From: a virus
Taxonomy: Duplodnaviria > Caudoviricetes
Virus record (IMG/VR): IMGVR_UViG_3300035187_002838
Span: 1-62,927 of that record
DNA: 62,927 nucleotides
Reading direction: 5' to 3' (one strand)
Below, one piece after another: positions 9,201 to 49,786 of the stretch. The notes under the pieces were generated by a model. It did not search any database. It was not told the origin of the DNA and saw nothing but the letters and a program-made list of their open reading frames with translations. The first letter of the stretch is position 1. Each line of letters starts with the position of its first letter. Made by a program: the position numbers and the translations under genes.

Positions 9201-9528
9201 GCGTTTTGCGTTAGAGACTGCTAAAATTGATAATTACTTAGCAACTGACAGTCTCGGTTCGAAGTATTCAGTTAAAAACCTTCAAAGGCTTCGTGATTAC
9301 AAAACAGCGCTAGCTTTGGAACAAGATGCTTCATCTTCTGGCGCTCAGATTATTGCTTTAACAACTCGTAACAAACAGCTAGCAGAGTTAAGCAATGTAG
9401 TTCCTACAAACCAAAAGAAACGTTTGTATGACGAAATTGCAGCATTAACTTATAATGATCCTAGGTTCAGAGAGCTTAATCAAAAATTAGGATTAAATGA
9501 AAAAGATTTGAGAAAAGCTTCTAAGGCT
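6280..9528 (+). CDS. exon 1 of MuF (SPP1 gp7-like) head morphogenesis protein fused to a T7-type single-subunit RNA polymerase
   Basis: MuF signature WQYVSVLDSRTTPVC...PPAHFNCRST; RNAP motifs DHRARIY (T7 DWRGRVY), motif A LEQDASSSGAQ, first half of motif B RKASK. Confidence 0.88.
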
Positions 9529-10387: not shown

Positions 10388-11818
10388 CAAAACATGGTGA
10401 CCTTTTACGGTGCTGGTGAAAAAACCAGCGGCCTAAATGTAGAAGGTAAACTGTCTAAGGTTTTAGATAAGCAAGAGAATGTTTTAGTGGTCAAGGCTTC
10501 TGAAAGAGATGTAGTTCTTAATGAGATTTCTGCAAGAATTGCAAGATACGAAAAATTTGATCCAGAAACTGCCGAGGAACTTCGACAATTACGACAAAAT
10601 GTCAGAGACATTTTTAATAAAGGCTTAGATCCTGGCGATGAAATTTTAGACCAGCTTTATTTTCTAGAACCTAAAACAAAAGAACTTGTAGAAAAGCTAT
10701 CTCAGTCGTACGAGAGAGTAGTTACACCTGATGATTTTAAAGCAATTGCTAGAATCATGAGTGAATACTTATCAGAGCAAGTCCCTATACTTAAAGATTT
10801 TACCAGGTATTTTGGCAGGCTAGCCGAAGATTATTTGGCAAATGCAAAACCTTCAGGCAGTAATTTTGACTGGGAATCCATTGCAAAAACACAGCTTGTC
10901 GGCACTAAGAAAAAAGGTTATGTGTTACCTGATAATATAAGCAGATTGTTAGGAATAAAAGCTGGAGAACCTGTTTCAGAAAAGATTCTTAAAAGATTCG
11001 GATTTTGGGAGCCTAATGGTAACTTAGCGCAGCTGATTTTTGGTGTAGACTCTCCTGAATACCGTAGGACTGGAGCTAAGTACTTTAAGACTGAAGTTGT
11101 TGTTCCAACAATTGATATTGAAAAAGGTGCTTTAGCTAAAGAAGTTTCCCTCAGTGGGTTTGAAGTTTTTAAGGCAAATAAATTACCTAAAAGCTGGACT
11201 AACGTTCCTTGGGTAAATTTTGATGGAAAAATTATTGAACAAAATTTTACACAGTCTTTTGAAGAACGGCTTGTTTATAAGGATAAATACGGTAACTGGA
11301 CTACTAATATACTTCAATTACCGCAGAAAACCGAGATATCGTGGGTAGATACGCTGATTAACAAGTCAGGAAAGATTAATGACATTGCTGATTTTACGCG
11401 TGCAAGAACAGCATTCGCAGTTAATGGCAATCACTCTAATGATGCTGTAATTGTTAAAAAGTTTCATCTTTGGGGCAAGAAAACAGGTGTTACAACTTCT
11501 ACTATTCATGATGCTTTCTTTACTAATGCCGCAGACATGCTTACTGCAAGGTCAGCCTTGAAAGAGATTTATGCAGATGTATTAGATAGGAATGTTATCA
11601 AGATGACTCTAGATGAAATGAAAGCCAGAGGCTTGCCTAAGGAGTTGTATGATAAGTATCTTGAAGAAGCTATCGAAAAAGGTTTAATACCTATTCCAGG
11701 AAAATCTAGAGTTGGTGATAAAATTTTAAATGAAAAAGACATACTGAATAGAAAAGATATTTTAAAGGAAATTCCTAAAGGCTTTTCCAATGACTATGGA
11801 TGGTACGGTGTTGGCTAA
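10388..11818 (+). CDS. exon 2 of MuF-RNA polymerase (rest of motif B, fingers, motif C); spliced product 1559 aa
   Basis: QNMVTFYGA completes R-x3-K-x7-YG; NGNHSNDA (T7 NFVHSQDG); motif C TIHDAF. Confidence 0.88.
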   Translation, partial: QNMVTFYGAGEKTSGLNVEGKLSKVLDKQENVLVVKASERDVVLNEISARIARYEKFDPETAEELRQLRQNVRDIFNKGLDPGDEILDQLYFLEPKTKELVEKLSQSYERVVTPDDFKAIARIMSEYLSEQVPILKDFTRYFGRLAEDYLANAKPSGSNFDWESIAKTQLVGTKKKGYVLPDNISRLLGIKAGEPVSEKILKRFGFWEPNGNLAQLIFGVDSPEYRRTGAKYFKTEVVVPTIDIEKGALAKEVSLSGFEVFKANKLPKSWTNVPWVNFDGKIIEQNFTQSFEERLVYKDKYGNWTTNILQLPQKTEISWVDTLINKSGKINDIADFTRARTAFAVNGNHSNDAVIVKKFHLWGKKTGVTTSTIHDAFFTNAADMLTARSALKEIYADVLDRNVIKMTLDEMKARGLPKELYDKYLEEAIEKGLIPIPGKSRVGDKILNEKDILNRKDILKEIPKGFSNDYGWYGVG

Positions 11819-26000: not shown

Positions 26001-27362
26001 TCTATACCCGCCTGGCTTTCTAATGGCGAGTTTGTTGTAAACGCAGCAGCCACACGCAAGCACAAAGATTTGCTTGTTAAACTAAATTCTGCAAAAGGGT
26101 TTCAAACAGGTACTGAAACAGATTCTTCAATTGTGTCTAGCAACGTAATGGGGCAACTTGTAACAGTGCTTAATGATCTTAGGAACACTATTTCTAGAAG
26201 AACGACAGAAGCTTTACCACCTGATATAAAGACTTTAGTCAGAGCTAGAAGTTTAGGTGTAGATGTCGATGAGCTAAAACTTAAGTCATTAGAACCTGCA
26301 TTACAGGCTGAGCTTACTAAGCTTATTGAAGCCGCTTATCAAGCTGAAATAAAAGCCCGTAAAGAGAAAACGCCTGAAGCAATAAAAGAGTCTCAAAAGG
26401 CTCTTGACTTTGTAGAATACTTTGTTGAAACAAACTTGCCAAAATTTTCTAATAAGATTAGGGATATTGGATTATCTTTTGCAGATTCTGTTGGTAGTTC
26501 TTTAACAGAGGCTTTAAAAGGATTGTTAAAAGGACAAACAGAAGAAGGTAAAAGCGCATTCCAAACGTTTGCAAAGAGATTCTTAGATAACTTTACAAAC
26601 ACTGTTATAGACACTTTTGTAGCTGGATTAATGGATCCTTTAACAGGCAAGGATGGTTTAATTACAAAGGCTGCAAAAGGCCTTGGAGAGGGTATTTTCG
26701 GATCTGCAAATAAAGCAACTACAGATGCCCTTAACGTAATTAAACCTAAAAATGTTATTTCTCCTGACAAAGTTCCGGTAGAGTCTAGAGATTTATCGGG
26801 AATTAAAGAAGGAGCCCCGGGAATAATTGATAAGATTACGTCAAAACTGAAAGAAGGTGTATCGGGTATAACAGGTTTGTTTAAGGATTTTAAACTTCCA
26901 GATTTTTCAAGCATCTTTAAGGACTTTAAATTACCAGACTTTTCAAGTATTTTTAAAAACTTTGATATTAGCTCGATCTTTAGTATTTTTGGATTTGCAG
27001 AGGGTGGTAAAGTTTCTGGTGCCGGTAGTGGCACCTCGGATTCTATCCCCGCAATGTTATCTAATGGCGAATTCGTCATAAACGCAAAAGCTACGAGAGA
27101 TCATATAGGTCTTTTAACTTCCATCAATTCAGGTAAGCTTAAGAAATTTGCAGAAGGTGGGCTGGTGTCTACGGCAATGTTAGCTGCACCAGCGATAGCT
27201 GATGTAAAAACCGCACAAGTCAATAATCAATCTTCCCAACAAGTTATCAATTTAACTATTACTGGTGATATCAGCCGCCAAACAAAGGCTGAGATTTATC
27301 AAATGCTACCTTCTATTGCTGAAGGTGTAAATTCACACAATCGAGAAAGAGGTTATCGTTAA
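17001..27362 (+). CDS. tape measure protein (3453 aa) with C-terminal repeats and an inserted HExxH domain
   Basis: N-terminal tape-measure motif QLGQGLSSGVLRGEELNSVLEQTPRLA; three GPGTGTSDSIPA.LSNGEFV.NA repeats; HELGH at 24702. Confidence 0.88.
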   Translation: MSGIQIDVNARTSKSEQDLAKINQSLKSIEQSTTSASRALSSTFIGLGTALVTGGALVSLRNISTEFTNLENKIALVTGRTEQLVITQTRLFKIAEETRGSLAGTVTVFSSFGRALRDAGASTENILKATKTVQQSIAISGSSAESAAAALVQLGQGLSSGVLRGEELNSVLEQTPRLAQAIADELKVNLGQLRRLGAEGQLVSDVVFKALLNQSQKINKEFQVLAPTFQQASNALTDSIKIYVNELDKGLGVSTTLGKLTFSLAKSIKGASDNAFELGNNIRIAFNRNKTTALSVIQPIGRSLVELSKQFLQIVPGLNLTRTLKGDFREALRFIDKEFLGGLITRFNQFKFIDLISVESNVEKAIRKLKRLSPTYWAASGFDVKTIQQVLSTENIRLYGAAFTELADALKGNTEGIGNAFTNLARKVDFSFKAISRYLGFRVDTIIAFSRGQLDTFFVTLSEIVRGITGVRIKFFELKSLFINVAQPGIEAFADAVIDSFNALPEGFLNFVDNVAKGSVRLIQIVGQITRELLFTELNINYKEVLDTILNYITSFSDSVANLLSFDSSLDKLQNFGNKVIEIFREIYDKVIGNSWWTDTINNVIQTSETLWDRTSNGLSRFKKNVIGVFKDIFTNKTSFDFEISKKVSFDDVFGGLTADGLVKTFDVVVEKATKVFEKFFETFPNLAKVALTGIAGALVYSLFPPSVLKTIILTSIVSSLATNSTLLAEKFGAAMTGGSFASTLGYAIGRGAGFFISNFIRDIPQILNTIGGFVSSLFRGITEQLPIIGSAISFIFSLASAVGAAGPLGIIGTYLLGKNLNVFSLIAKIEPIKGLLEFFDLKLGKDDDKKKNKSPGVTGAIFSYLFGNFGKERTIASILGVLDLLGTFESLFANSPLTQMAARGGILATILYGEEATTMFKNGFTKFVAKPLGDALRKFSETKGGGIKTIYDIIFGSGDPLALPSTFAERISLVLRPLIDKVTANIVDYASPKLKAGYDFLEKLFLGRRPKRTIAKINQELRAVYESVAKTVTAYASKFISPFTNIFKFGKGQKDDASGVVDLVNKTGASISSKATEAASKASEAIGKAAKESSKTIDKIAGETGLLGRLFLGKYGKAIIIGSILSVFSALALANVQAEKDLKSPFDTLIEDVKKIDFLAPFKALSTETLLSIIPALIGGFLLFKNNILTVFGDIKRAAMSTFASVAAAAGATGLANMLGGVAGGGGGRAARNSRTLAVGSIGIAAGAGVGAALIDNITTGILVGGALLTFIQALPAKLALGIIGGIKTALLATLSAIFSIPTLIGAVALTAIGAAGVWLFGPNKEFFKDLDLAIDKARELVGLRPREKPSDRGLAKSDEAFLKSRSIESTFSLKQVNLQNLDSKDIQKLKEKTAEYSKAIDKAREEEEQRGSITDETRKELELLDAGLKNFTGKLAVKSTKFSGSMSEFIQNLTKVEGGSRFGDFVLRSEQFRNDIILGITRAAVQARRFLDPTKEGKAAATERLAELDFEAKTIFNAFYRPLSETEKQLLNLAKAAEAVTITNEDLEQSLLKARQLYESEADRVRLQQATPFGGFKQLTAADTGSLTILRADYDLLLRQRVAFDRVRKAANAYQADLAALGNTFKDVLGLDVDFNDIFAVDQSDLKRIKDLQGEAKRLAEQIKDTSDVGRQNEITLRITEIRRQVVQIVENAKVEVSPLRPQVRARELAEKAGIINSDQFYEGLGDESARALIRTYQNIIEKIDNAKINPLKPFDIFSPTDKLRPVETLKGAPQQSFGQLQADIRAQQEAAVRQAKDAARGTKAELVALQQDAEKFGINYESLITKYGIKSSIGVIQNLSNKFRELEIAKTNRQDSRVAILTRQIGLLKEEINKVPLDFQAALGYLSSGTFSITAEDLFQTPGILKDSLALGRVFKNVEDKFRLMTTNVSEIEFQEVFKEKIEASRKVFDLFLKTIGNTPAKLTQAFERTFGVNLLETTLPSEDLLDFAVSVERIKLELEDLAKRGGTREEFAFITLLQQQLNKTIEFAKNKLPKTFEQIFNRVNSTLELNLTEAQLIRLPKDTQKSLQDYANYIQSSLEKIRKSTLPALKETPEEFFKSLDEILRKTSFVKFFTDFSKSFAKIAFEGFVDQFGRLKDLVSDLKLEKSEFAQLPKQIRVQLAEDATLVRTFENLIETLPGITEEQLSILSELSPTGSNLKAVFDAFASSVLASFNTLPENVRRSIDALLKPETDPIVNQIRSLDNVSTRLDSLRIAIDNLTAKISAPTGYADGGYVTGPGTGTSDSIPAVLSNGEFVVNAAATRRHKKLLEELNNNSNVFKNTFNTPEDIIQKSLEINSEKNLLKELTSVQVGSGNLSLAKFGKSFGLKWMSKFAKGGGIKTFGSPFADRVEYDKEKLKLLNTPYFNFESLYEIVSQTEKQLSGVDISSKKDSVKLIDILTGDLDKKLKLIESLETKDSKLFEIGKSGAFDTSRILDYRINRPNDIIETNGLTALTNGRGGLKWQLTDDPFEAYFRPGFDMKYPSRYISAQTYSLKNSEKEFLLPRMDTSKSIPDLFARYAISNHELGHYFSQRRTLPNVADLFDPQNLPKSFQNLDYFMELRNVLKGYSHERYNFEDVTKDSFYERLLLDAAYVDKTAVTESSNLNFRKGLQNNLYSFKLFEELTASNIASLIDPTKSSWLVNQNALRTYQVQQLNNLGLLSLIEMISKKENYEGFFEMFETPKINPFSTQRQVNSMVGILSSKTQDTSTIFENLKRLDKNKFALQTDAAIEYSTEAFKAIEEEIKEHSRVGNSLVTKTLFIDPYDPYIESLKAPDKASKSKNTKLSQYSPLLGLGVSTGIAGFDFLNNASGSELYSDTVGIASVLMRLRNATATGLLTYAPEVADATLKKNNPELWKLQQETDLIRQASERAKIRSSVVDSKMKVPNSSQKKLLELVQEPTKSDSIRQGFNNFGLNFTDDLIKRMGDPANIFLSNRAKKRANGGILEGPGTGTSDSIPAWLSNGEFVVNAAATRKHKDLLVKLNSAKGFQTGTETDSSIVSSNVMGQLVTVLNDLRNTISRRTTEALPPDIKTLVRARSLGVDVDELKLKSLEPALQAELTKLIEAAYQAEIKARKEKTPEAIKESQKALDFVEYFVETNLPKFSNKIRDIGLSFADSVGSSLTEALKGLLKGQTEEGKSAFQTFAKRFLDNFTNTVIDTFVAGLMDPLTGKDGLITKAAKGLGEGIFGSANKATTDALNVIKPKNVISPDKVPVESRDLSGIKEGAPGIIDKITSKLKEGVSGITGLFKDFKLPDFSSIFKDFKLPDFSSIFKNFDISSIFSIFGFAEGGKVSGAGSGTSDSIPAMLSNGEFVINAKATRDHIGLLTSINSGKLKKFAEGGLVSTAMLAAPAIADVKTAQVNNQSSQQVINLTITGDISRQTKAEIYQMLPSIAEGVNSHNRERGYR
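26880..26990 (+). repeat. in-frame tandem repeat FKDFKLPDFSSI (two full copies plus degenerate)
   Basis: Visible in the tape measure translation. Confidence 0.8.
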
Positions 27363-36939: not shown

Positions 36940-37215
36940 ATGGAGAAGTCAACAATGCTTTCTCACACAGAAGCTTTGTCAAAGCTGAAGACTGTTGAGC
37001 CGTCTGATCTCGTACAAATCAGTACGCGTATTGGAAAATATCTTGGACGGCCGATCTATCCGGCATCGTCGATAGTAATTGAAGAAGTAAGTGACGATGG
37101 CGGCCTTGCCGCTATGGTCAAGATGACTTACAAGGGGGTGCAGGTTTACAATTCCATGGCATATCATCCCACCCTGGCCCAGTGCATTGTCTTCGTTATG
37201 GCAAAGCATTGGTAA
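36940..37215 (+). CDS. early hypothetical protein, paralog of 37858..38130
   Basis: Shares LVQISTRIGKYLG, EVSDDGG, PTLAQCI, MAKHW with the paralog. Confidence 0.75.
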   Translation: MEKSTMLSHTEALSKLKTVEPSDLVQISTRIGKYLGRPIYPASSIVIEEVSDDGGLAAMVKMTYKGVQVYNSMAYHPTLAQCIVFVMAKHW

Positions 37216-37279
37216 GTGAAACTGAAGAGGCTTAAATAATAGCCGAAACCTAGGCCCTTCGGGGCCGATGGTCTTTCAC
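37216..37279 (+). ncRNA. type I hammerhead ribozyme 1 (cleavage after C37273)
   Basis: Stem I GTGAAA/TTTCAC; CTGAAGA core; stem II GGCT/AGCC; GAAA; stem III capped by cUUCGg; GUC triplet. Confidence 0.88.
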
Positions 37280-37299
37280 AACTTTGAAGGAATCTTCAA

Positions 37300-37641: not shown

Positions 37642-37776
37642 ATGAACGCTTATCTGCGTTACATGAAAGCCGAAGCTCGCGCTTATGAGAGCAACAATGT
37701 TTCCAGAATGTTGAAGTTGGCAAGTCTTAAAGCGCGTGCGTACAGTATGTACGGTTTAACTTGTCTTTACTGGTAA
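37642..37776 (+). CDS. 44-aa early protein (not in ORF track)
   Basis: T12-CAAAGGAG RBS; MNAYLRYMKAEARAYES...CLYW; stop abuts ribozyme 2. Confidence 0.65.
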   Translation: MNAYLRYMKAEARAYESNNVSRMLKLASLKARAYSMYGLTCLYW

Positions 37777-37837
37777 GTGAAACTGAAGAGACCTTTATGG
37801 TCGAAACCTAGGCTCTTCGGGGCCGATGGTCTTTCAC
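37777..37837 (+). ncRNA. type I hammerhead ribozyme 2 (cleavage after C37831)
   Basis: Same core; stem II covaries to GACC/GGTC. Confidence 0.88.
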
Positions 37838-37857
37838 AAACTTTGAAGGAGTCTTAA

Positions 37858-38130
37858 ATGGAAACTTTTCTCTCTCATGCAGATGCTTTAACAAAGCTGA
37901 AAACTGCGGATCCTTTCTGTCTTGTACAGATTAGTACTCGTATTGGAAAGTATCTAGGAAAGCCTCTTTATCGGACATCATCAATCGTGGTGCACGAGGT
38001 GAGTGACGATGGTGGCATTGCTGCTCAGGTTAAGATGACTTATAAAAGTAAGTCTATCGTTGATCCTGACGGAACGTATACTCCAACCCTCGCACAATGC
38101 ATTGCATTTATCATGGCAAAGCATTGGTAA
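37858..38130 (+). CDS. early hypothetical protein, paralog of 36940..37215
   Basis: GAAGGAG RBS; shared motifs with the paralog. Confidence 0.75.
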   Translation: METFLSHADALTKLKTADPFCLVQISTRIGKYLGKPLYRTSSIVVHEVSDDGGIAAQVKMTYKSKSIVDPDGTYTPTLAQCIAFIMAKHW

Positions 38131-38191
38131 GTGAAACTGAAGAGGCTTCATTAGCCGAAACCTAGGCCCTTCGGGGCCGATGGTCTTTCAC
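38131..38191 (+). ncRNA. type I hammerhead ribozyme 3 (cleavage after C38185)
   Basis: Same core and stems; loop II TCATT. Confidence 0.88.
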
Positions 38192-38206
38192 AACGGAGTT
38201 TTTTGT

Positions 38207-38640: not shown

Positions 38641-38695
38641 TGACTGAGCGAGCTGTAGCGTAATTTTTTTTTTTTTTTTTTCAAAGGAGTGTTAA

Positions 38696-38962: not shown

Positions 38963-39106
38963 ATGGTCACATTTGGGAAGTTCAAGTGGCCAGTGAGCAT
39001 CGTGAGTTACGCGCAGGAAAGCCACATGCGCAATCCCGCGTATTACCACATGTCTTTGGAGGAAATCCTCCATAAGTTTTACAGCACTTATAAGAGAGCT
39101 GTTTAA
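38963..39106 (+). CDS. 47-aa early protein (not in ORF track)
   Basis: AGGAG RBS; MVTFGKFKWPVSIVSYAQ... Confidence 0.5.
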   Translation: MVTFGKFKWPVSIVSYAQESHMRNPAYYHMSLEEILHKFYSTYKRAV

Positions 39107-39163
39107 CCCATTTAGAAGCCATTAGAGATAGTGGCTTCAATAATGTGTTAATTTTGACACAGA
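39105..39163 (+). repeat. repeated long stem-loop (RNase III site-like), copy 1
   Basis: CATTTAGAAGCCATTA-GAGA-TAGTGGCTTC-AAT-AATG; copies at 39584 and 40562. Confidence 0.6.
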
Positions 39164-39181
39164 CTTTGAAAGGACTTTGAA

Positions 39182-39580: not shown

Positions 39581-39583
39581 CTT

Positions 39584-39642
39584 AACTCATTTAGAAGCCA
39601 TTAGAAATAGTGGCTTCACTAATGTGTTAATGGTAACACAGA
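39584..39642 (+). repeat. repeated long stem-loop, copy 2
   Basis: Near-identical to 39105 copy, followed by the same CTTTGAAAGGAC RBS. Confidence 0.6.
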
Positions 39643-39658
39643 CTTTGAAAGGACTGAA

Positions 39659-40428: not shown

Positions 40429-40560
40429 ATGTACCGTGTGTGGATTCCTATGATTCAAAAGTGGATCGAGAATGTGCCTGTGACAGAGGCAGTAGTATAT
40501 AAGGAAGAGGGCTACAAAGTTCTTCGTATGGATCTTCCGTACGAAACTCCTCCGCGCTAA
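40429..40560 (+). CDS. 43-aa early protein
   Basis: GAAGGAG RBS before ATG 40429. Confidence 0.55.
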   Translation: MYRVWIPMIQKWIENVPVTEAVVYKEEGYKVLRMDLPYETPPR

Positions 40561-40561
40561 G

Positions 40562-40620
40562 AACGCATTTAGAAGCCATTAGAAATAGTGGCTTCAATAA
40601 TGTGTTAATGGTTAACACAG
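40562..40620 (+). repeat. repeated long stem-loop, copy 3
   Basis: Near-identical to 39105 and 39584 copies. Confidence 0.6.
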
Positions 40621-40647
40621 AAACGCCCAAGTGGGCAAGGAGGTTCC

Positions 40648-40967: not shown

Positions 40968-41312
40968 ATGTTGTTGAATCTTACACCGCATACGATTGTG
41001 GTGAGGCTCTCAGATGGCGGAGAACACGTGTTCTCTCCGTTCGGCCAAACGGCTCGTGTGCAAATGATGCATGAGCCTGTAGAGAGCAGTTTCCCCTTTC
41101 CTGTCGTCACTCGCTTTGCGAGTACGATAGTTGAGGGCCTGCAGTATGACGAGCAAGGCAGGATTCTTCCGTGTCTTGTTTCGTCCATGGTTCTGGATGC
41201 CCTTCCTAAGGGTACCCAGAACGTGTATGCCCCGGATGCGGGGCCAACGGCCATTCGGGAGAATGGTCAAATCGTCGCGGTAACGCGGCTTATTCAAAAG
41301 GAGGGGTTGTGA
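40968..41312 (+). CDS. hypothetical protein (NLTPH-motif family)
   Basis: AAGGAG RBS; MLLNLTPHTI...LVSSMV...APDAGPTAIRENGQIVAV. Confidence 0.7.
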   Translation: MLLNLTPHTIVVRLSDGGEHVFSPFGQTARVQMMHEPVESSFPFPVVTRFASTIVEGLQYDEQGRILPCLVSSMVLDALPKGTQNVYAPDAGPTAIRENGQIVAVTRLIQKEGL

Positions 41313-41461
41313 AAAAACCCGAACAGATGCAAGCCGAGCAGCTTGCCAAGAACCAAGCCACAAGGGCTTGGGCTGCTTCGAATGGGGTGGGCTCTAAGCC
41401 TGCTTCGTTCCCCGAGATTTCTCGGGCACCGGTTAAGAGCCGGAAGAACATCAAGCGTTGA
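41309..41461 (+). CDS. 50-aa basic peptide (not in ORF track)
   Basis: AAGGAGG RBS, GTGA overlap with upstream stop; MKKPEQMQAEQLAKNQ...RKNIKR. Confidence 0.5.
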   Translation: MKKPEQMQAEQLAKNQATRAWAASNGVGSKPASFPEISRAPVKSRKNIKR

Positions 41462-41466
41462 TGTTC

Positions 41467-41496
41467 AAAGACCTGAGCAGGTCTTTAAAAGGCTCA
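41467..41496 (+). repeat. repeated H-type pseudoknot motif, copy 3
   Basis: AAAGACC-TGAGCA-GGTCTTT-AAAAG-GCTCA. Confidence 0.6.
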
Positions 41497-41514
41497 AAAG
41501 TGTCCGCATAAAAA

Positions 41515-41540
41515 TGCGGAAAAAGTGGTATCTTATATGA
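41515..41540 (+). promoter_or_regulatory. putative early promoter, class A, copy 3
   Basis: TGCGGAAAAAGTGGTATCTTATATGA. Confidence 0.65.
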
Positions 41541-42070
41541 AAGGAGAAATCCCTATCAAGAGAACTGTGTGTTGAGTAGCGGAACACAGACTCTGTAAAA
41601 GTTAGCTATCGAGTAGTGACGTAATCACTCAGCCAATAAGTCAAAGCTGTCAAAGAGGACGATTCTACTCACGTTGTAAGATCGCGGGTCATGCCTATAC
41701 CCGATCGCATCAAATAGGAACCCATCTGAAATATGGTGGGACCACTTAAGCATCTTTAATCGGGTGCTTAAATGGTCTGACTGGGCTGGATAATGCCGAA
41801 TTTATCCTAGGTATAGAACACCGAACATGTACGTTGTTTCAGTCTATTGGAACAAGCCGGAGTAACGTAACCGGCAACCCTTTAGCAGCGGGGAAAAGCT
41901 AGCTATGAACAACTCAGTGTTGTTCCGTAAAGACTACGAAATGTCGAGCGACAGCTGCAACATCGCTTAATCAAGCGCAGCAACACCCAGCGAGTATGGT
42001 GTATAAAAACATCTTGTGAGAATCGAATGCCGAATCGATTCGAAATTTAAGCAGGCATCAAATTGGTCTT
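41541..42070 (+). ncRNA. candidate large structured noncoding RNA (~530 nt)
   Basis: No credible ORF; more than 10 local hairpins and several long-range complementarities; starts right after a class A motif. Confidence 0.62.
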
Positions 42071-42096
42071 CAAATCAGTTCTTGAAAGGAACTATC

Positions 42097-42549
42097 ATGC
42101 GTGCTATTCAAGTTCTCCATTTCATTGTCAATGTCATTGTGAACTTCTTTATGGGAGTTCTCATTGGGTTGGCGGCCGTCAAGGTCTTTGCCCTGACGGG
42201 CTTGGCCTTGTCTTCAGGCTTTGGCTTGATCGTCTACCTGGCGCTTGCGTTCGCTGCAATGATTGCAGCCGGTACGATCGCTCAGGTGTACGATCGCGAA
42301 ATCGCCGCTTTCAGCGTCTATATTACTGGCGCGTTGATTGCGATCGCTGGCCTTGCTAGTCTCCCCATTCTGGCGCTGATTTCAGTTGCCTCTATGGTCA
42401 TCGGCTATGCTATCATGGCTGTTGGCCTTGTGGCTGGCATCACCCTTGTAGGTTTCTACAAGGCAAAGGATGCCGTCACAAGGGTTGTCAGCAATGTCAA
42501 GGCTTTCTTTAAGAAGGCTAAGAACAAGCTGACCCCGGCCCTGGCCTAA
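42097..42549 (+). CDS. multi-pass membrane protein
   Basis: GAAAGGA RBS; about four hydrophobic helices, basic C-tail. Confidence 0.7.
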   Translation: MRAIQVLHFIVNVIVNFFMGVLIGLAAVKVFALTGLALSSGFGLIVYLALAFAAMIAAGTIAQVYDREIAAFSVYITGALIAIAGLASLPILALISVASMVIGYAIMAVGLVAGITLVGFYKAKDAVTRVVSNVKAFFKKAKNKLTPALA

Positions 42550-42557
42550 AAGAAAGA

Positions 42558-42608
42558 ATAAGGGGCACCCTAAAAAGTGCCCCTTATCTTTTTCTTTTTT
42601 TTTTTTTT
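42558..42608 (+). terminator. intrinsic terminator
   Basis: ATAAGGGGCAC/GTGCCCCTTAT stem, T5-C-T14 tail. Confidence 0.8.
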
Positions 42609-42610
42609 CA

Positions 42611-42775
42611 ATGAAAAACAGAGCTATTCTACTTTCGACATTTGTAGTAGCCTCCCTACTTTTGTCAGAAGTTTTCAAGCTGTTTGATGAAGAGTACTAT
42701 AAAGTACTCGGAGGTGTTAGTGGACTTCTGATTTGTGTCTTTGTAAACAATCATCTTCAAAGGAAATCATCATGA
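42611..42775 (+). CDS. 54-aa membrane peptide (not in ORF track)
   Basis: Two hydrophobic stretches; ATGA overlap with next gene; weak RBS. Confidence 0.4.
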   Translation: MKNRAILLSTFVVASLLLSEVFKLFDEEYYKVLGGVSGLLICVFVNNHLQRKSS

Positions 42776-42984
42776 TGAAACTTTTCTTAAATGCTGCAAA
42801 AGCTTTTGCGGTAGTTTTCTTCATTGCACTTGCATTCGCAGTGTCGGCTGCTCCTGTGTTCTTTGGAATTGTATTTCTCTCGGCGACAGCCGTGGGAGCC
42901 GCAATTGTGTACGGGCTTTTCGGGGCAGTTGCAACAGGACTTATCGGGTACTTCAAAAGTGCAAAAAGCAAGCAAGATGTCTGA
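42772..42984 (+). CDS. small membrane protein
   Basis: AAAGGA RBS; two hydrophobic helices. Confidence 0.6.
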   Translation: MMKLFLNAAKAFAVVFFIALAFAVSAAPVFFGIVFLSATAVGAAIVYGLFGAVATGLIGYFKSAKSKQDV

Positions 42985-43267
42985 TGTCCAAGTGGACATC
43001 GAAGGGCTCTTCTGCGTATCTAAACAATACCCAGAAATTAACAAGAGCATGTATCTTCCAACAGAACTTTTTAAGCCTTCAGTCAGGAGGTTTAAACTGT
43101 TCAACCTTCGTGAAACGTCTATGAAGAGGCTCGTCGGAAAGCCTCTAGCGTCTACTGAATACACCGGTATTGTAGACGTAGAAGGGTCACTTGTCCCCTT
43201 CTTTATCAAAACAGACAAAGTAGAAAAATTGAGACAGGCACAAGAGAGTATAAATAGTTTTATTTAA
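42977..43267 (+). CDS. hypothetical protein
   Basis: MSDVQVDIEG... overlapping upstream stop. Confidence 0.55.
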   Translation: MSDVQVDIEGLFCVSKQYPEINKSMYLPTELFKPSVRRFKLFNLRETSMKRLVGKPLASTEYTGIVDVEGSLVPFFIKTDKVEKLRQAQESINSFI

Positions 43268-43271
43268 AAAC

Positions 43272-43333
43272 AACCTCAGGTGCCCGCAAGGGCATCTGGG
43301 GTTATTCTTTTTTTTTTTTTTTTTTTTTTTTTT
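43272..43333 (+). terminator. intrinsic terminator with T26 tract
   Basis: AACCTCAGGTGCCC-GCAA-GGGCATCTGGGGTT then 26 T. Confidence 0.8.
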
Positions 43334-43585
43334 GTGGTAAGCAAGAAAAGGGCAATTAAAAAAAGGAGAAAATGTGTCGCCGAAATCTAATTATAAAGTT
43401 ATGCATTTTCTTTTGATTGTAATTGTCTTGTTCTTATTTTCCCGACTGTCTTTTGATGCCCTGATTTTAGGCGCCCTTGTGATTTATTTATTGCAGCGAA
43501 CAGGTAAGAAAGATGATTAAGTTTTTGATTGGACTTTATCTAATTTATCTTATCCCTAAAATAATATCTAAAATAAAGGAACTTG

Positions 43586-45838
43586 ATGAAAAAGAAAATT
43601 CTTGATTCTTTAAACTCAAGAATAACAACTGAAATATCGGGACATAACCCGCTTAAATATTTGCTTAAGATTAAAACAGAAGATTATATTGATACATTAA
43701 TATCTATTGTATATCTATACACTAGACCGAAGAAGGGTCATAATAAAAATTCTATTTATCTTACAGAAGTTATTTCAGCTATCGGACACGGTATTCGGAA
43801 TAAGTTCAAACTAAAACGTGACTCAGCATTGGCGGCTAAAACTGGCGCCTTCATGTTATATACTTTTGAACATCTCGGATATATTCAAGTTGTTCTCGGA
43901 CAAGGCTCAAAAGGGCATAACACTTATCTTGTGCAAGTGCTCAATGATGATGAAATTTGCAATTTGTGGAATTCACTAGATCCTTCTCAAATTGAAAAGT
44001 TACCTTCAGAGACTCCCTACGAACCGTGGACTTCTGCAAAGCATTCAACGGGTGTCTGGCTTGTTAAAACAGGCAATAAAACAGTCTTAGACAGTCTTAC
44101 TCCAGAAACACATCCTATTGTCTTTAATTGCGTCAACAAAGCACAACAGATGGGCTGGAAAATAAACAATTGCGTTTACGATCTTCATTTGTGGGCCTTA
44201 CGAAATAAAACAGATGCATTCTCTGAAATCTGGGAATTGTCTAATGCGGAAGCAAAGGCAACTAAACTAAGAGAAGCAAAAGCTATAGGTGACATCTCAC
44301 GAAGATTCTTAAATAAAGTTTTTTATCATCTTTATTACTATGACTTTAGAGGTCGTAAATATACCGCTACTGCATATTTGCATGAGCAAGGCTCTGACCT
44401 TGCAAGAGGTCTACTATTGAGAGCAGACTCAAAACCAATTGGAAAAGAAGGCTTCTTTTGGCTAATGGTATCAATTGCTTCAAATTGGGCGGGTGATGCT
44501 GGCAGAGAAGATGGTGCAAAGACTGACAAAATACCGCTTCAAGAACGATATCTTTGGGCTCTAGACAACGAAGAAATTCTATTGTCATATGCCGAAAACC
44601 CTAAAGTAAATCAAGGTTGGATGAAAGCTGATAATCCTTGGCAATTCATTGCAGCGTGCAACGAACTAATGCGATTTAGAATCTGGCAAATGAATGTGTA
44701 TGAAAACCACAAAGATGTTGTAGCTGAATATGACTACCCATCATCGCTTGAAGTATATATTGACGGGTCAAACAATGGTAGTCAGCATCTTGCAGCATTG
44801 ACTAAAGATGAAATAATTGCACCGCATGTAAATCTGGTGCCATTAAACTTGCCTGGAGATCTCTACAAATATGTCGGTGACCATGTCTGGAAACATCTTG
44901 AAGAAGAGCTTTCTTTAATGACAAATGAAGAAATTCAGGACTGTGAACGAGTCATTGATAATCTAATTCAGCTTAAAAAGCAAATAAATGCTGCTGAACC
45001 TAAAAGTGATTTTAGAAAACAACTCATAGAACAAATCAAAGAATTTAAGTCTGAAAATGATCAGCTTATTGGGATTGCTGCACCTGTATTTTGGTCTAGA
45101 ATTAAAGATGCAAAACACAAGAGAAAGATTGTGAAAAGAAATACGATGACTATCCCGTATGGCGGAACAGCCTATGGCTTAGGTCAGCAAATCATTGATG
45201 ATGCTAGAAAGCATAATATTGAACTTTTGCTTTATATGGAACATCGATGGGGTGCATATCTCGGAAGAGAAGTGTTTAATGACTGCAAGCGTTCTTTAGA
45301 AAAGCCTATGCAATTGCTTAAGATCTTTGAAGAGGCTGGTCGAAAAGCTGAGCAAGACGGCAAGTTTTTATCCTGGACTGTGCCTGTTACAAAGTTTCCT
45401 GTAGTACAAAACTATACAGAAGGCGTTGTTAAAAAGATTTACGTACAATATGGTCCACCTCAAGGTCTTAGAAATAGCACAGGTTATTTTGATAATACAC
45501 TGCAATTAGCAATATGCTTCATTGAGGATGTAAAACCTTCTAAAGGAAAACAGTCTCAAGGTGCAAGTCCGAATATCATTCACAGTCTTGATGCTGCGCA
45601 TCTGTCTATGATTGTAGCTTCTTCTGACTTTCCTGTAACGACTATTCACGATTCTTTCGGATGTCTTCTGGCAGATATGCCTAAGTTGTTTGCAGTAACT
45701 AGACAAACATTTGTTGAACTTTATAAACAAGATCCTTTAACATCGATTATGAAAGATATAGGAGGTAATGCAAATGAAGTAGAACTAGGAAATCTTGATT
45801 TAAACTTGGTAATTGAATCCGAATATTGTTTTTGCTAA
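43586..45838 (+). CDS. T7-type single-subunit DNA-dependent RNA polymerase (stand-alone)
   Basis: DFRGRKY; motif A IDGSNNGSQH; motif B RKIVKRNTMTIPYG; PNIIHSLDA; motif C TIHDSF. Confidence 0.93.
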   Translation: MKKKILDSLNSRITTEISGHNPLKYLLKIKTEDYIDTLISIVYLYTRPKKGHNKNSIYLTEVISAIGHGIRNKFKLKRDSALAAKTGAFMLYTFEHLGYIQVVLGQGSKGHNTYLVQVLNDDEICNLWNSLDPSQIEKLPSETPYEPWTSAKHSTGVWLVKTGNKTVLDSLTPETHPIVFNCVNKAQQMGWKINNCVYDLHLWALRNKTDAFSEIWELSNAEAKATKLREAKAIGDISRRFLNKVFYHLYYYDFRGRKYTATAYLHEQGSDLARGLLLRADSKPIGKEGFFWLMVSIASNWAGDAGREDGAKTDKIPLQERYLWALDNEEILLSYAENPKVNQGWMKADNPWQFIAACNELMRFRIWQMNVYENHKDVVAEYDYPSSLEVYIDGSNNGSQHLAALTKDEIIAPHVNLVPLNLPGDLYKYVGDHVWKHLEEELSLMTNEEIQDCERVIDNLIQLKKQINAAEPKSDFRKQLIEQIKEFKSENDQLIGIAAPVFWSRIKDAKHKRKIVKRNTMTIPYGGTAYGLGQQIIDDARKHNIELLLYMEHRWGAYLGREVFNDCKRSLEKPMQLLKIFEEAGRKAEQDGKFLSWTVPVTKFPVVQNYTEGVVKKIYVQYGPPQGLRNSTGYFDNTLQLAICFIEDVKPSKGKQSQGASPNIIHSLDAAHLSMIVASSDFPVTTIHDSFGCLLADMPKLFAVTRQTFVELYKQDPLTSIMKDIGGNANEVELGNLDLNLVIESEYCFC

Positions 45839-45841
45839 ATT

Positions 45842-46252
45842 ATGAAAACACTTGGCACAAATCTTAAGAATCTTAAAGAGTGTGGTATACCGGCACTTTA
45901 TGAGAAAATTTATAAATATTGTGAATCTTATAACAATGAAAGCTCCGATTTAGAGTTCCCTATCGGAGATAATTTTAATGTTGACCTAGGTGGTCCAATT
46001 CTTCTAGCAGAAACCGTAGAAGATTTACAAGCAATTCAAACTAATCACTATAATCACGACGCTAGTCGTTATTACAGTATTGCAGAACGTGCTTGTCAAT
46101 TTGATATTTGTGAATATTTCGATGATGAAAAGTATGTTTACGTACTGATGTGTACACACAATGGTGGCGGTACTACCTATCTGATTCTTAAAGAACTCGC
46201 AGATAAATTTGAAACAATTCGTGAAAGTATTAAGCTAACAGCCTATGATTAA
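45842..46252 (+). CDS. hypothetical protein
   Basis: 136-aa ORF in operon. Confidence 0.6.
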   Translation: MKTLGTNLKNLKECGIPALYEKIYKYCESYNNESSDLEFPIGDNFNVDLGGPILLAETVEDLQAIQTNHYNHDASRYYSIAERACQFDICEYFDDEKYVYVLMCTHNGGGTTYLILKELADKFETIRESIKLTAYD

Positions 46253-46454
46253 GATAACTAAGACATCAATTATCAGTGGTACTACTAGAACTATCGAATT
46301 ACCGATTACTCAAGATCAACTTGAGCGTTGGCAACGTGGTGAAGACTTGATTCAAAACATTATGCCAGACTTGACGCCAGAACAACGAGAGTTTGTCATG
46401 ACTGGTGTAACTTCTGAAGAGTGGGATGATACTTTTAAAGACGAGGATGTTTAA
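46245..46454 (+). CDS. hypothetical phage protein
   Basis: LIQNIMPDLTPEQREFVMTGVTSEEWD. Confidence 0.65.
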   Translation: MIKITKTSIISGTTRTIELPITQDQLERWQRGEDLIQNIMPDLTPEQREFVMTGVTSEEWDDTFKDEDV

Positions 46455-46455
46455 A

Positions 46456-46695
46456 ATGGATGTTAATAATCTTTACATTATTGCTACAATTGGCGAAAAT
46501 GATGCCAGTATTGCAATCCCACACTCTGAGGAAGCATTGGTTTTCCTATCGAAAATAAAGATTCTATATCGAACAAGTAATTGGCGTGGTATTTCAGAAT
46601 TTGAGCATACCGACAAAAAGATGTATTTGTCGCTTGTAGATTACGAGTCTATCAAGCAATTGCCTACACCTGTTCCGCCCGAAGACAAAATTTAA
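46456..46695 (+). CDS. hypothetical protein
   Basis: GAGGA RBS before MDVNNL; within track ORF 46426..46695. Confidence 0.5.
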   Translation: MDVNNLYIIATIGENDASIAIPHSEEALVFLSKIKILYRTSNWRGISEFEHTDKKMYLSLVDYESIKQLPTPVPPEDKI

Positions 46696-46716
46696 AGTGA
46701 ACATTTGTTAAGCAAT

Positions 46717-46732
46717 CCCGTTAAGTTAACCC
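46717..46732 (+). promoter_or_regulatory. putative phage RNAP promoter, class B variant CCCGTTAAGTTAACCC
   Basis: 14/16 identity with 11826; upstream of replication operon. Confidence 0.7.
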
Positions 46733-46766
46733 TCAAGTGAGGGACATGTTTTTACTAAGGAATTTT

Positions 46767-47261
46767 ATGCCGATTATTTCTAACTGCGAGTTGTGGTTTC
46801 CAAAGCTGGACCCCAAGCGTCCTAATAGCAAATTCAATAAAGAGAATCCTACGTGGGAAGTGCAAATTCGCACTACCTCGAAGGAAGTCAAAAAGAACTG
46901 GGAAGAACTTCAGCTCCCTGTAAAAGCTATTGTGCCTGATGAAGGTGCCCCGTATTACCGCGTCAATCTCAAGAAGAAAGTCTTCAAAGAAAACGGTGAA
47001 AATTCTTCTCCAGTCAAGCTTGTAAATGGTAAGCTGGAAGATATGGATCCTAATTCTGTGGGTAACGGCAGTCTTGGCAATGTTCGCATTTACCAATACG
47101 AGTATCCTAAGAAGGATGGCGGAAAAGGCTTTGCAAGCGTTTTGATGGGCGTGCAAGTTACTAAGCATGTGCTCTATACTCCCAAAGCTCGTAATGATGA
47201 GTTTGGTGAGACCGAAACGGAGATTGTAGAACCTTCTGACGACGAGACCGAAGAGTTCTAA
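46767..47261 (+). CDS. single-stranded DNA-binding protein (T7 gp2.5-like)
   Basis: VGNGSLGNV and LMGVQV OB-fold motifs; acidic tail ending DDETEEF. Confidence 0.8.
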   Translation: MPIISNCELWFPKLDPKRPNSKFNKENPTWEVQIRTTSKEVKKNWEELQLPVKAIVPDEGAPYYRVNLKKKVFKENGENSSPVKLVNGKLEDMDPNSVGNGSLGNVRIYQYEYPKKDGGKGFASVLMGVQVTKHVLYTPKARNDEFGETETEIVEPSDDETEEF

Positions 47262-47265
47262 CATT

Positions 47266-47294
47266 AAGGGGCTACCTCATGGGTAGCCCCTTTT
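47266..47294 (+). terminator. intrinsic terminator
   Basis: AAGGGGCTACC-TCATG-GGTAGCCCCTT-TT. Confidence 0.7.
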
Positions 47295-47297
47295 AAT

Positions 47298-47924
47298 TTG
47301 AAAGGAGAAATTGTGCTATATACCTATACTGTTTATAAGACTATTGACCCAGGTCGTGAAATTGTTCGCTGTGATATTTTTACAAGAGAAGAAGAACTTA
47401 AGTTCTGGCAGGTAACAAAACCTTTTCATGTTAGCGTGTTTGACAATCTTCAAAACAAAAATATTCTTATCTTAAACACTAAAGAAGCTTTAGAAGAGTG
47501 GTTTAATACGGTAGAAGATAAAAGAGTTGCTGCAGAACGGGCGTTTGCTTGGAAACCTGAAATGGATCAAAAGCCTGCAATAGGTAAAGTTGAAAAAGTC
47601 ACTGCAACAGGCAGAATTGACACAGTCACAACAATAATAAATTCAACAGCTGTTAAGCCGACACATTACGAAAACTTCATTGGTGAATATCAATGGATTG
47701 ACGCAATGTCTAGGATTCCCAGATTTAAGGATCCTAAAGTATTCATTGCAGCTGTAGAGTTACAAGTTCGTAAGTATCTCGATCGTAACGGTCGAAAAGA
47801 TGAAGAACTGCAAGAACTGAAGAAAGGTTTGTTCTACTATATGTACATGGTAAAGTACATTCAGAATAACAACACTCCTGTTTTAGCAAAAGATATCCAT
47901 GCAATTATGGAGCACTTTAAGTGA
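47298..47924 (+). CDS. protein with C-terminal DUF3310 (T7 gp1.7-like) domain
   Basis: VKPTHY...KYLDRNGRKD...ELKKGLFY. Confidence 0.6.
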   Translation: MKGEIVLYTYTVYKTIDPGREIVRCDIFTREEELKFWQVTKPFHVSVFDNLQNKNILILNTKEALEEWFNTVEDKRVAAERAFAWKPEMDQKPAIGKVEKVTATGRIDTVTTIINSTAVKPTHYENFIGEYQWIDAMSRIPRFKDPKVFIAAVELQVRKYLDRNGRKDEELQELKKGLFYYMYMVKYIQNNNTPVLAKDIHAIMEHFK

Positions 47925-49786
47925 AAGTGATCTTTGATGCAGAAGCAGATGGATTGCTTCTAGTAGCCAAACGAATGTGGATTTTATCTACATTTGTACA
48001 CGAAACAAAAGACCGTAAAACTTTCTTAGAAAATGACTTAGGCTGGCAAGACCAGTTTAACAATGCAACGCATGTTATTGGCCATAACATTATGGCTTAT
48101 GACTTGCCATTGCTCGAGAAGTTGTTTGGTTACAAATTGCCAAAGCATGTGACACCTATTGATACTATGATTCTATCACAAGTTTTAAACTATAAGAGGT
48201 TCGGAACTGATGGACATAGCTTAGGTCGGTGGGGTGAAGCGCTTGGTCACAAAAAACCTGAGCATGAAGATTGGTCTCAATATTCAGAAGAAATGCGTAT
48301 TCGAAATACTGAAGACGTTGAAATTACAGTTAAAGTGTTTGATACTGTAAGAGCTGAATATCAAGCACTTCTTGCAAAAGAACCTAAGATTAAATTTTAC
48401 ATTAGAGCTGAACATGCTGCAGCTAAATGGTGTGCAACAGCTTCTCTCCACGGCTGGCCTTTTGATGTGCCAGCTGCGAAAACTCTATATGAAAACCTTG
48501 AGACATCGATGGGAAGGGCGTACACAGCTTTGAATGAAAAACTTGGAATGAAATGTGTAGCTGTTGATAAAAAGAAAGGCATTGTTGAAGAGAAGCGGCC
48601 TAAATGGACTAAGCAAGGCTGCTATGATGTTCATACTGCAAATTGGTTTAATATAGATCCATGGTCAGGTTTTGAGGGTGAGGCACGTCCTATTCTAGGT
48701 CCATACTCAAGAGTTGAATTTCAAAATTTAAGTCTAGATTCTGTCACTGATGTAAAAACATTCTTATATCGACATGGTTGGCAGCCTACAGAATGGAACT
48801 ACAAAATTGATGAAGACACAGGTAAGAAAGTAAAATCGTCTCCAAAAATTTCCGAAGACAGTCTTGAGTTTCTAGGCGGTGATGGCAAACTTTATACTGA
48901 GTTTTTAACTGCAAGATCTCGGTATGGTATTCTTAAAACATGGCTAGAAAATACTGATGAAAATGGAATGCTACATGGTGATTGTATGTTGGTCGGAACA
49001 CCTAGTATGCGTGCTAGACATTCAATTATTGTCAATGTTCCAAGTGCCGACAGTCCTTGGGGTAAAGAGATGCGATCGCTTTTTACTTGTTTGCCTGGCT
49101 GGAAATTGATTGGCTGTGATTCGTCTGGTAACCAAGCAAGAGGTCTTGCTCATTATCTTGGTGATGAAAAGTTTATCGATACACTTTTGAATGGCGATAT
49201 CCACCAGTATAATGCAGATGTTCTTACGGCTGTATTGAAATCTATAAATGTAGACTTTGTAGTAAAGCGCTCTCAAGCAAAGCGTATCTTGTATGCGTTC
49301 TTGTTTGGAGCATCTGGTGGCAAATTATGGAGTTATATCTTTGGTGTAATTGACGATATTCAAGGCAAAAAATTAAAGAATGGCTTCCTAAAAGCTGTTC
49401 CTGGATTTAAAGCACTTCTTGAAAAACTCGAAAGCATTTATGGTAAAACATCACAATTCGGTGACGGTTACATTCCTAGCCTTGCTGGTAACCGTATTTA
49501 TGTGGATTCCTTTCACAAGCTTCTTGTGTATCTTTTACAATCTGCTGAAAAAATTACCTGTGCATCGGCTTTAATGCTTACTGTAGAAGCTCTTGAAAAG
49601 GAGAATATTCCATATATCCCGTGTATCTTTTATCACGATGAAATCGATTTCATGGTACCTGAGCAATATGCTGAGCGTGCTGGAGAAATCGGTAAAAAGT
49701 CTTTTGCAGAAGGTCCTAAGTTGTTCGGTATAACGATTATGGACGGTGGCGCAAAAATTGGAAATTCATGGTATGATGTGCATTAA
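47921..49786 (+). CDS. family A DNA polymerase (T7 gp5-like) with 3'-5' exonuclease
   Basis: ExoI FDAEAD, ExoII GHNIMAYD; motif A DSSGNQAR, motif B RSQAKRILYAFLFG, motif C YHDE. Confidence 0.92.
   Translation: MKVIFDAEADGLLLVAKRMWILSTFVHETKDRKTFLENDLGWQDQFNNATHVIGHNIMAYDLPLLEKLFGYKLPKHVTPIDTMILSQVLNYKRFGTDGHSLGRWGEALGHKKPEHEDWSQYSEEMRIRNTEDVEITVKVFDTVRAEYQALLAKEPKIKFYIRAEHAAAKWCATASLHGWPFDVPAAKTLYENLETSMGRAYTALNEKLGMKCVAVDKKKGIVEEKRPKWTKQGCYDVHTANWFNIDPWSGFEGEARPILGPYSRVEFQNLSLDSVTDVKTFLYRHGWQPTEWNYKIDEDTGKKVKSSPKISEDSLEFLGGDGKLYTEFLTARSRYGILKTWLENTDENGMLHGDCMLVGTPSMRARHSIIVNVPSADSPWGKEMRSLFTCLPGWKLIGCDSSGNQARGLAHYLGDEKFIDTLLNGDIHQYNADVLTAVLKSINVDFVVKRSQAKRILYAFLFGASGGKLWSYIFGVIDDIQGKKLKNGFLKAVPGFKALLEKLESIYGKTSQFGDGYIPSLAGNRIYVDSFHKLLVYLLQSAEKITCASALMLTVEALEKENIPYIPCIFYHDEIDFMVPEQYAERAGEIGKKSFAEGPKLFGITIMDGGAKIGNSWYDVH

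Follow-up and report, generated by a model that had tools for sequence, protein, structure and literature searches.

What is carried by the longest stretch of a lake virus genome that holds no gene? The DNA analyzed here (the window) comprises the whole of an IMG/VR virus record, 62,927 bases that are classed as linear and 93% complete, and positions 41541-42096 are its longest stretch free of open reading frames (ORFs). The original prediction for positions 41541-42070 was of a discrete, ornately folded noncoding RNA of about 530 nt, a member of a class such as GOLLD or ROOL or of a new one. Our analysis leads elsewhere. We consider it probable (about 0.6) that 41541-42096 is a mosaic untranslated leader of about 555 nt, belonging to the third early unit of a lake siphophage-like virus, and that it carries a new cis-acting RNA module. 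The public sequencing runs that contain the stretch are lake-water metagenomes.

For comparison we fetched 17 loci around relatives (47-98% identity) of the single-subunit RNA polymerase of the window (751 aa, 43583-45838; phrog_414, E = 9.5e-107), together with 13 loci around relatives of an upstream gene. Loci are denoted by L numbers, and L016/L044 is the closest relative of the window. The leader would comprise, in order, a 20-nt 5′ hairpin leader, segment A, the module of about 100 nt and segment B. Its parts and immediate surroundings are as follows.

41470-41483, plus strand: terminator-like hairpin GACCTGAGCAGGTC then TTTAAAA, the end of the preceding unit, in a repeated cassette.
41504-41539 region, plus strand: small hairpin CCGCATAAAAATGCGG overlapping the putative promoter motif.
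41516-41539, plus strand: P3, GCGGAAAAAGTGGTATCTTATATG, the third copy in the window of the putative promoter motif.
41540-41561, plus strand: conserved 5′ leader with a small hairpin GGA-GAAA-TCC (41543-41552), 97% identical to L016.
41562-41679, plus strand: segment A, an orphan that folds like shuffled sequence, with one CGTAA-loop hairpin (41615-41629).
41680-41718, plus strand: predicted H-type pseudoknot; helix S1 is 41680-41687 with 41700-41706 (hairpin H0), helix S2 is 41694-41698 with 41714-41718.
41694-41698 with 41714-41718, plus strand: the S2 pairing, H0 loop CCTAT with ATAGG.
41721-41740, plus strand: hairpin H1, CCCATC, 8-nt loop TGAAATAT, GGTGGG (in full CCCATCTGAAATATGGTGGG), with a conserved U-G pair.
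41741-41755 with 41762-41776, plus strand: H2, a 15-bp hairpin abutting H1.
41777-42096, plus strand: segment B, an orphan with multiple hairpins (z = -2.28) and the ribosome-binding site GAAAGGA.
41788-41807 and 42020-42041, plus strand: AATGCCGAAT-loop hairpins in segment B.
41856-41875, plus strand: hairpin GCCGG-AGTAACGTAA-CCGGC in segment B, resembling L016 311-329.
42097-42549, plus strand: downstream gene for a hydrophobic orphan protein of 150 aa, with its ribosome-binding site GAAAGGA at 42084-42090.
42558-42609, plus strand: strong terminator-like hairpin with a long T run, closing the unit.

Is the stretch inherited as a unit? Over the 6.2 kb of window 43583-49786, L016/L044 is 95.6% identical to the window in nucleotide sequence. 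Upstream of the polymerase gene it matches the window at two places only, 41469-41560 (97%) and 41716-41776 (86%). The first of these aligns to L016 219-311 and comprises the promoter motif and the 20-nt leader. All other genes and noncoding bases of 41561-43583 are different in L016/L044, with unrelated downstream genes. Because this relative keeps only two islands, the 530 nt are not a unit of inheritance. The locus L015 shares an identical piece of 41 nt (41716-41756), then diverges inside the loop of H2. Judged by such alignments, only the ~100 nt of 41680-41776 and the 20-nt leader have relatives. An exact scan of 2.9 million viral contigs for a 20-mer of segment A found no copy, the loop-pair pattern of segment B matched 10 loci that were all unrelated by BLAST, and GenBank phages gave no match to 41400-42200. 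DNA contigs from three lake runs are 100% identical to the window where they align; some end at 41612, 41711 and 41775 and none crosses 41776-41834, gaps from which we conclude nothing. Clusters of hairpins with CGTAA at the end of the loop occur in the leaders (window 41615-41629 and 41856-41875; L016 311-329 and 497-516; L015 4847-4866), and two of the three such plus-strand hairpins of the window lie inside the 530-nt stretch.

The folding energies divide the stretch in a similar way. For the 530 nt as a whole, z was -2.24 when the plus strand was folded, with 3 of 100 shuffles doing as well, and -2.89 for the minus strand. Taken in parts, 41541-41681 folds no better than its shuffles (z = -0.14; 89 of 200 as good), 41682-41778 folds better than every one of them (z = -3.41; 0 of 200), and 41779-42096 lies between (z = -2.28; 2 of 100). 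When the fold was scanned in sliding windows of 120 nt, only those starting at 41680 and 41720 stood out within the stretch. The excess over shuffled controls is clear for the module, moderate for segment B and absent from segment A.

The individual hairpins and complementary pairs listed in the original prediction are all present where it placed them. The significance attached to the long-range or pseudoknot pairs does not survive: we count 9 perfect 7-mer complements, against 6.2 ± 3.1 in 300 dinucleotide shuffles, of which 19% reach 9. The loop AATGCCGAAT does cap two different stems, as had been observed, and it was found in no hairpin of the other loci. GOLLD and ROOL are both families of Rfam 15. 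At gathering scores the window matched this collection only at a group I intron (9467-9733), and at E ≤ 10 the region 41300-42300 returned just two chance-level hits, fiv_FSE (E = 1) and mir-3204 (E = 6.4), which we take to be Rfam families; eight related loci gave no match at the element. With no Rfam match beyond chance, no conservation as a unit and a segment A that folds like shuffled sequence, the idea of a ~530-nt RNA of a GOLLD- or ROOL-like or new class is not supported for the stretch as first delimited. The covariation that it called for is found within the ~100-nt module, and the stretch as a whole lacks conserved relatives. Selection on RNA structure is seen in the pseudoknot, H2 and the extension of the H1 stem.

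What is the structure of the module? Upstream of H1 lies H0, whose stem differs in every lineage and whose loop is pyrimidine-rich. The pentamer ending two bases 5′ of H1 is AUAGG in the window, AGAGG in L033, GAAGG in L016 and L015, and AAAGG in L034. The perfect complements CCUAU, CCUCU, CCUUC and CCUUU each occur once in the 53 nt upstream, in the H0 loop of their own lineage. The complement is therefore matched within the lineage in 4 of 4 cases and across lineages in 0 of 12, where chance would give 0.02-0.10 per lineage. Sliding the pentamer gave no matches apart from two in L034 (offsets -6 and -5), where the helix is made longer. These comparisons indicate that 41680-41718 is an H-type pseudoknot with two covarying positions, the second helix covarying in all four lineages. 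The register of S1 was picked by its likeness to L033; RNAfold favors a variant of 5 bp.

H2 was aligned over the four lineages that have both arms (window, L016/L044, L033/L040 and L034). In these four sequences 97.6% of cells are paired, compared with 31-45% in slid controls; two pairs are changed on both sides and four on one side. The basal stem is conserved, and the apical stem varies with compensation. The 3′ arm of H2 has been replaced in L015. In the window H1 directly abuts H2, which is followed by CTGACTGGG, and neither hairpin has the T run that would make it an intrinsic terminator. Both hold G-U pairs that become A-C mismatches when read on the opposite strand and so fit the plus strand only. 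The module is oriented with the genes in all loci, the next start codon comes 65-106 nt after the start of H1 in four of the five module-bearing loci, and the polymerase gene follows H1 in all four genomes that bear the module. A covariance model (R1) of the linker, H1 and H2 found the module in 5 of 42 sources, which include relatives of the polymerase at 47-79% identity, and found no further copies. Judged from these alignments and the Rfam scans, the pseudoknot, H1 and H2 together appear to be a new pseudoknotted RNA motif, in no Rfam family.

How widely is H1 distributed? The exact 20-mer occurs at 15 loci in viral contigs; these represent 10 different contexts, and the window makes an eleventh. 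In five of these (the window, L015, L016/L044, L033/L040 and L034; group i) H1 is accompanied by an abutting H2, and all come from phages with a related polymerase. The other six (L035/41/43, L036/37, L038/39, L042, L045 and L046; group ii) have H1 without H2. Here the stem of H1 is lengthened by lineage-specific flanks that still pair, with a covariation score for the extension of 0.341 compared with 0.141 ± 0.044, a value reached by none of 500 shuffles. In four of the six lineages (L035, L042, L045 and L046) the extended stem is followed on its 3′ side by T-rich sequence, giving a terminator-like appearance. The window has a single copy of H1, as have four of five other records; in the fifth there are two, and one of these carries C-G in place of the U-G pair.

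The phages that share H1 have little else in common. H1 is the same in phages whose polymerases share only 39-63% identity, and a search of seven group (ii) records, one of them complete, found no related polymerase. An all-against-all BLAST of 2,724 ORFs from 11 records revealed no family linking all four group (i) records to any group (ii) lineage; one protein family joins three of those four to two group (ii) lineages, and is absent from the window. A host origin of H1, as an attachment site or a mimic of a tRNA or repeat, was rejected on finding no exact copy in the genomes of 185,579 bacterial and archaeal species. GenBank phages gave only chance matches of 16-24 nt to the H1 region, and a metagenome scan for the H1/H2 junction returned two loci, both copies of the L033 type. 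In the literature searched the string of H1 does not occur, whether spelled as DNA or as RNA, and no useful description of a relative of the phage was found there.

Is the remainder of the stretch truly noncoding? The claim that it contains no plausible ORF is borne out. TAA, TAG and TGA are all present in each of the six frames of 41461-42130, which excludes a hidden ORF or an alternative genetic code. Only two gaps of 250 nt or more separate the plus-strand ORFs of at least 45 aa in the window, and 41541-42015 is one of them. Two minus-strand ORFs of at least 30 aa touch the stretch (40 and 42 aa), and a plus-strand TTG ORF of 65 aa (41343-41540) terminates at its first base. GTG 42016 is an upstream extension of the downstream gene that overlaps the stretch; the true start is likely ATG 42097, behind GAAAGGA. 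When codon usage was scored after training on 23 long ORFs of the window, the region averaged -0.21 and its shuffles -0.13, compared with 0.10 to 0.45 for five neighboring small genes. A decayed gene is also excluded, as the coding signal is absent and tblastn with 12 neighboring or downstream proteins gave nothing below E = 0.08. Two short frames were considered and rejected: one from ATG 41734 in the H1 loop has an unrelated tail in each of five loci, where it is 8, 8, 9, 30 and 45 codons long, and a 12-codon ORF from an ATG within the promoter motif is disrupted in L016. No tandem repeats were found in 41300-42300, and no tRNA or tmRNA in the window. Related phages do have tRNA genes in their early regions (L033 2673-2746 and 3418-3499; L015 6806-6878 and 7995-8068), and one of those in L033 ends about 130 nt before H1.

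We turn now to the transcription unit. A 24-nt motif, GCGGAAAAAGYGGTATCTTATATG, occurs three times in the window (36843, 40899 and 41516) where none is expected, so that the early promoter-like motif of the original prediction is a real repeat; that it acts as a promoter is probable. The window and L015-L034 together have 25 ATCTTATA sites, and an extended form, approximately TGCGGAAAAAnnGGTATCTTATATGAtaAG, is present at 17 of them; many of these sites lie directly 3′ of a hairpin and T run. The motif-bearing loci belong to phages encoding a related single-subunit RNA polymerase (39-98% identity), and a sigma-70 scan found no plus-strand site at 41504-41539. Because the motif goes with this polymerase family, we infer that it is a promoter for the phage RNA polymerase. 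The terminator-like hairpin that precedes it is included in a repeated cassette (family D9, with copies at 38605, 40844 and 41460). In both D9 and a second family, D8, a stem-loop lies directly upstream of the conserved motif, and both are repeated in the region.

Downstream of P3 no terminator-like site was found on the plus strand between 41541 and 42557, and no second promoter motif before the gene at 42097. With no such site until 42558 and no other motif, this gene would be reached through the leader. Its 150-aa product belongs to no Pfam or PHROG family, no relative was found in viral contigs, and near-identical copies are its only counterparts among 5.8 billion proteins. Beyond it, two hairpins with long T runs (42558 and 43272) stand between P3 and the polymerase gene at 43583; there is no motif between, and the polymerase gene has none of its own. 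Terminator hairpins with unusually long T runs occur at 42558-42609, 43272-43334 and 38660-38681.

The picture that we propose is as follows. The unit would run from a phage-polymerase-type promoter (41516-39) through the leader to the gene of an orphan 150-aa membrane protein, and end at the terminator of 42558-42609. In a hypervariable early region, close relatives retain the regulatory islands (the terminator/promoter cassette and the module) and exchange everything between them. The islands would act as homology patches for recombination, and successive swaps would have piled several untranslated pieces into one long leader. The module, a compact pseudoknot followed by two stacked hairpins that come shortly before a ribosome-binding site in four of five loci, may act in cis on the RNA as a compact cistron-boundary element. 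It might protect or stabilize the downstream cistron, or be a processing site.

There are precedents for both aspects. The PeSL cassettes (terminator/early-promoter stem-loops) of T4-type phages are described as regulatory islands that bound the replacement of genes (PMC4122927; PMC2839356). The likeness lies in small conserved regulatory sequences repeated in a hypervariable early region, in stem-loops placed directly upstream of a conserved motif and repeated within that region, and in cassettes (terminator hairpin and motif, three times in the window) that flank genes replaced by unrelated ones relative to the 95.6% identical phage. The window differs in that its motif is not sigma-70-like and goes with a phage single-subunit RNA polymerase family, in that one of its islands is a pseudoknotted module of ~100 nt rather than a simple stem-loop, and in that the phage is not T4-like.

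For the module itself the closer comparison is with the early transcripts of T7-like phages, in which RNase III processing and stability hairpins lie between early cistrons. Like them, the window has long irregular hairpins between early cistrons, shortly before a ribosome-binding site, and the phage encodes a single-subunit polymerase of its own. It differs in that H1 is conserved in sequence, loop included, and that a pseudoknot precedes it. RNase III sites are not, to our knowledge, in need of sequence conservation such as H1 shows.

How do the leaders of related phages compare? L016 has an ORF-free leader of 380 nt behind the same promoter, with z = -4.65. In L021, whose polymerase is 71% identical, 3620-3994 is an ORF-free leader of 375 nt behind the same motif (z = -4.70), unrelated in sequence to that of the window and without an Rfam match. 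The window leader is the least structured of these three. Directly 5′ of H1, L016 312-632 and L015 4694-4965 share about 250 nt of conserved noncoding sequence. This shared leader has 62 predicted pairs, 8 of them compensatory in a comparison of two sequences only, and no Rfam match. It is a better candidate for a large structured RNA than the stretch in the window.

A number of points weigh against the leader reading. Given the strongly structured or compensatory leaders of L016, L021 and L015, this group of phages may characteristically make structured early RNAs, of which that of the window may be a true variant. Segment B may not be mere filler, given its z of -2.28, its two hairpins with the same loop and one hairpin in common with L016. 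For segments A and B no relatives were found by BLAST in the fetched loci or in pattern scans, and no profile search of collections was made. The pseudoknot is based on only four independent lineages. The module appears to be an accessory, dispensable element, since the covariance model finds it in only 5 of the 42 sources searched. Promoter activity and the ends of the transcript are read from the sequence. In a freshwater RNA library, a contig of 155 nt matches 41554-41708 at 96% identity, with six differences. Four of these could be placed on the predicted fold: two fall at unpaired positions, one turns a G-C into a G-U pair, and one adds an adjacent pair. This contig is a weak hint of transcription; it may be DNA carry-over, and it spans 41554-41708 alone.

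A bolder reading has, in our judgment, a rather low probability. The pseudoknot, H1 and H2 would form a new class of phage cis-acting RNA, and H1, absent from bacterial genomes, would dock a factor of the host, be it a ribonuclease, a chaperone or the transcription machinery, that many unrelated freshwater phages exploit. The group to which the window belongs would moreover make long, highly structured early RNAs behind its own promoter (the leader of the window, that of L016 with its L015 counterpart, and that of L021), which might be fast-evolving functional RNAs, for example anti-defence decoys.

Unlikely, in our judgment, is that the module is an antitermination RNA, allowing read-through of the terminators at 42558 and 43272 to the polymerase gene, or that H1 is the operator of a host RNA-binding protein. 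HK022 put sites consist of two abutting promoter-proximal hairpins and lambda nut contains the boxB hairpin, and both are antitermination sites. By architecture, the only basis of the comparison, the window resembles them in having promoter-proximal abutting hairpins, or a hairpin whose loop contains GAAA, one per operon and oriented with the genes. Such a role would suit a module in a promoter-proximal leader, two strong terminators ahead of a polymerase gene with no motif between, and the position of H1 upstream of that gene in all four genomes. A host factor would suit an H1 that is invariant even in its loop, single-copy, and common to phages without a shared protein family. However, relatives with the same promoters lack the module, and in four of the six other lineages H1 itself stands in a terminator-like, T-rich context. 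The likeness to put and nut is one of architecture, and those sites act on the host multi-subunit polymerase; we know of no antitermination RNA of this kind for a single-subunit enzyme.

Could the whole stretch, module included, be a functionless spacer left as a scar of recombination, its shared pieces recently exchanged? The mosaic pattern would be expected, as would two orphan segments, one of which folds like its shuffles, and a module that relatives can dispense with. Against this, selection on pairing is needed to explain how the pseudoknot, H2 and the H1 extension came by their compensatory changes, H1 is identical across polymerases of 39-63% identity and in phages that share no protein family, and the orientation always follows the genes. 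We regard the spacer as a little less likely even than antitermination.

The discrete ornate RNA of ~530 nt first proposed, perhaps a decoy or scaffold, has become improbable. In its favor are the longest ORF-free stretch of the window with a promoter of its own, many hairpins and a z of -2.24 for the whole region, and relatives do bear strongly structured leaders behind the same promoter. Like GOLLD and ROOL, the stretch is phage-located and noncoding with several hairpins; unlike them, it has no covariance-model match and no conservation as a unit, and its excess folding is weak. To the chance-level Rfam hits, the chance-level long-range pairs, the z of -0.14 for segment A and the replacement in a near-identical phage must be added that there is no terminator before the next gene, which has no promoter motif of its own.

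Least probable of all is an element acting as DNA, a promoter-primed replication origin or a packaging site: the T7 primary origin is primed from a phage promoter, and here a promoter motif is followed by noncoding DNA with an H1 that occurs once in the window, as it does in four of five other records, but the stretch is not AT-rich (GC 0.44 compared with 0.39 for the window), the G-U pairs of H1 and H2 mean that they are not true DNA palindromes, and the stretch is replaced in a near-identical relative.

The genome as a whole provides the setting for the leader. The plus strand holds nearly all of the long ORFs. Among the products of the window are a portal and a major head protein, together with a tape measure protein of 3,453 aa (17001-27362), very long for a phage of 63 kb; it also encodes a DNA polymerase, a primase/helicase and a ribonucleotide reductase. 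Among cultured phages, its RNA polymerase comes closest to the enzymes of the DSS3_VP1/PM1 phages (34% identity) and of Xp10 (27%). Between 36.8 and 43.2 kb lie small genes and repeated intergenic elements, with raised GC. Here two hairpin-rich repeat families of 69-74 nt stand ahead of small early genes, and a piece of 183 nt is duplicated at 36951 and 37863 (74% identical). The copies of the two families are listed below.

39103-39176, 39582-39655 and 40560-40633: copies of one 69-74-nt repeat family.
37213-37281, 37771-37839 and 38125-38193: copies of the other 69-74-nt repeat family.

A second polymerase may be present. The C-terminal end of a MuF-like head protein (6280-9531) carries a single-subunit RNA polymerase motif, and 10394-11818 carries a further one. 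The two are separated by the group I intron noted above (RF00028, 9467-9733, 89 bits) and a homing endonuclease gene (9757-10353), and in each of the genomes G008 and G009 a single ORF of about 1,560 aa is the counterpart. The MuF-linked region 6280-11818 probably encodes a second, very divergent RNA polymerase, borne in the virion and split by the intron.

If the leader reading is right, what appeared to be a giant RNA gives way to a concrete picture, that of an early region made of swappable gene cassettes set between conserved regulatory islands. The 24-nt motif would define a candidate promoter for an uncultured family of phage polymerases. Finally, that unrelated lake phages carry an identical H1 suggests either a host factor common to them or a regulatory element that is mobile.

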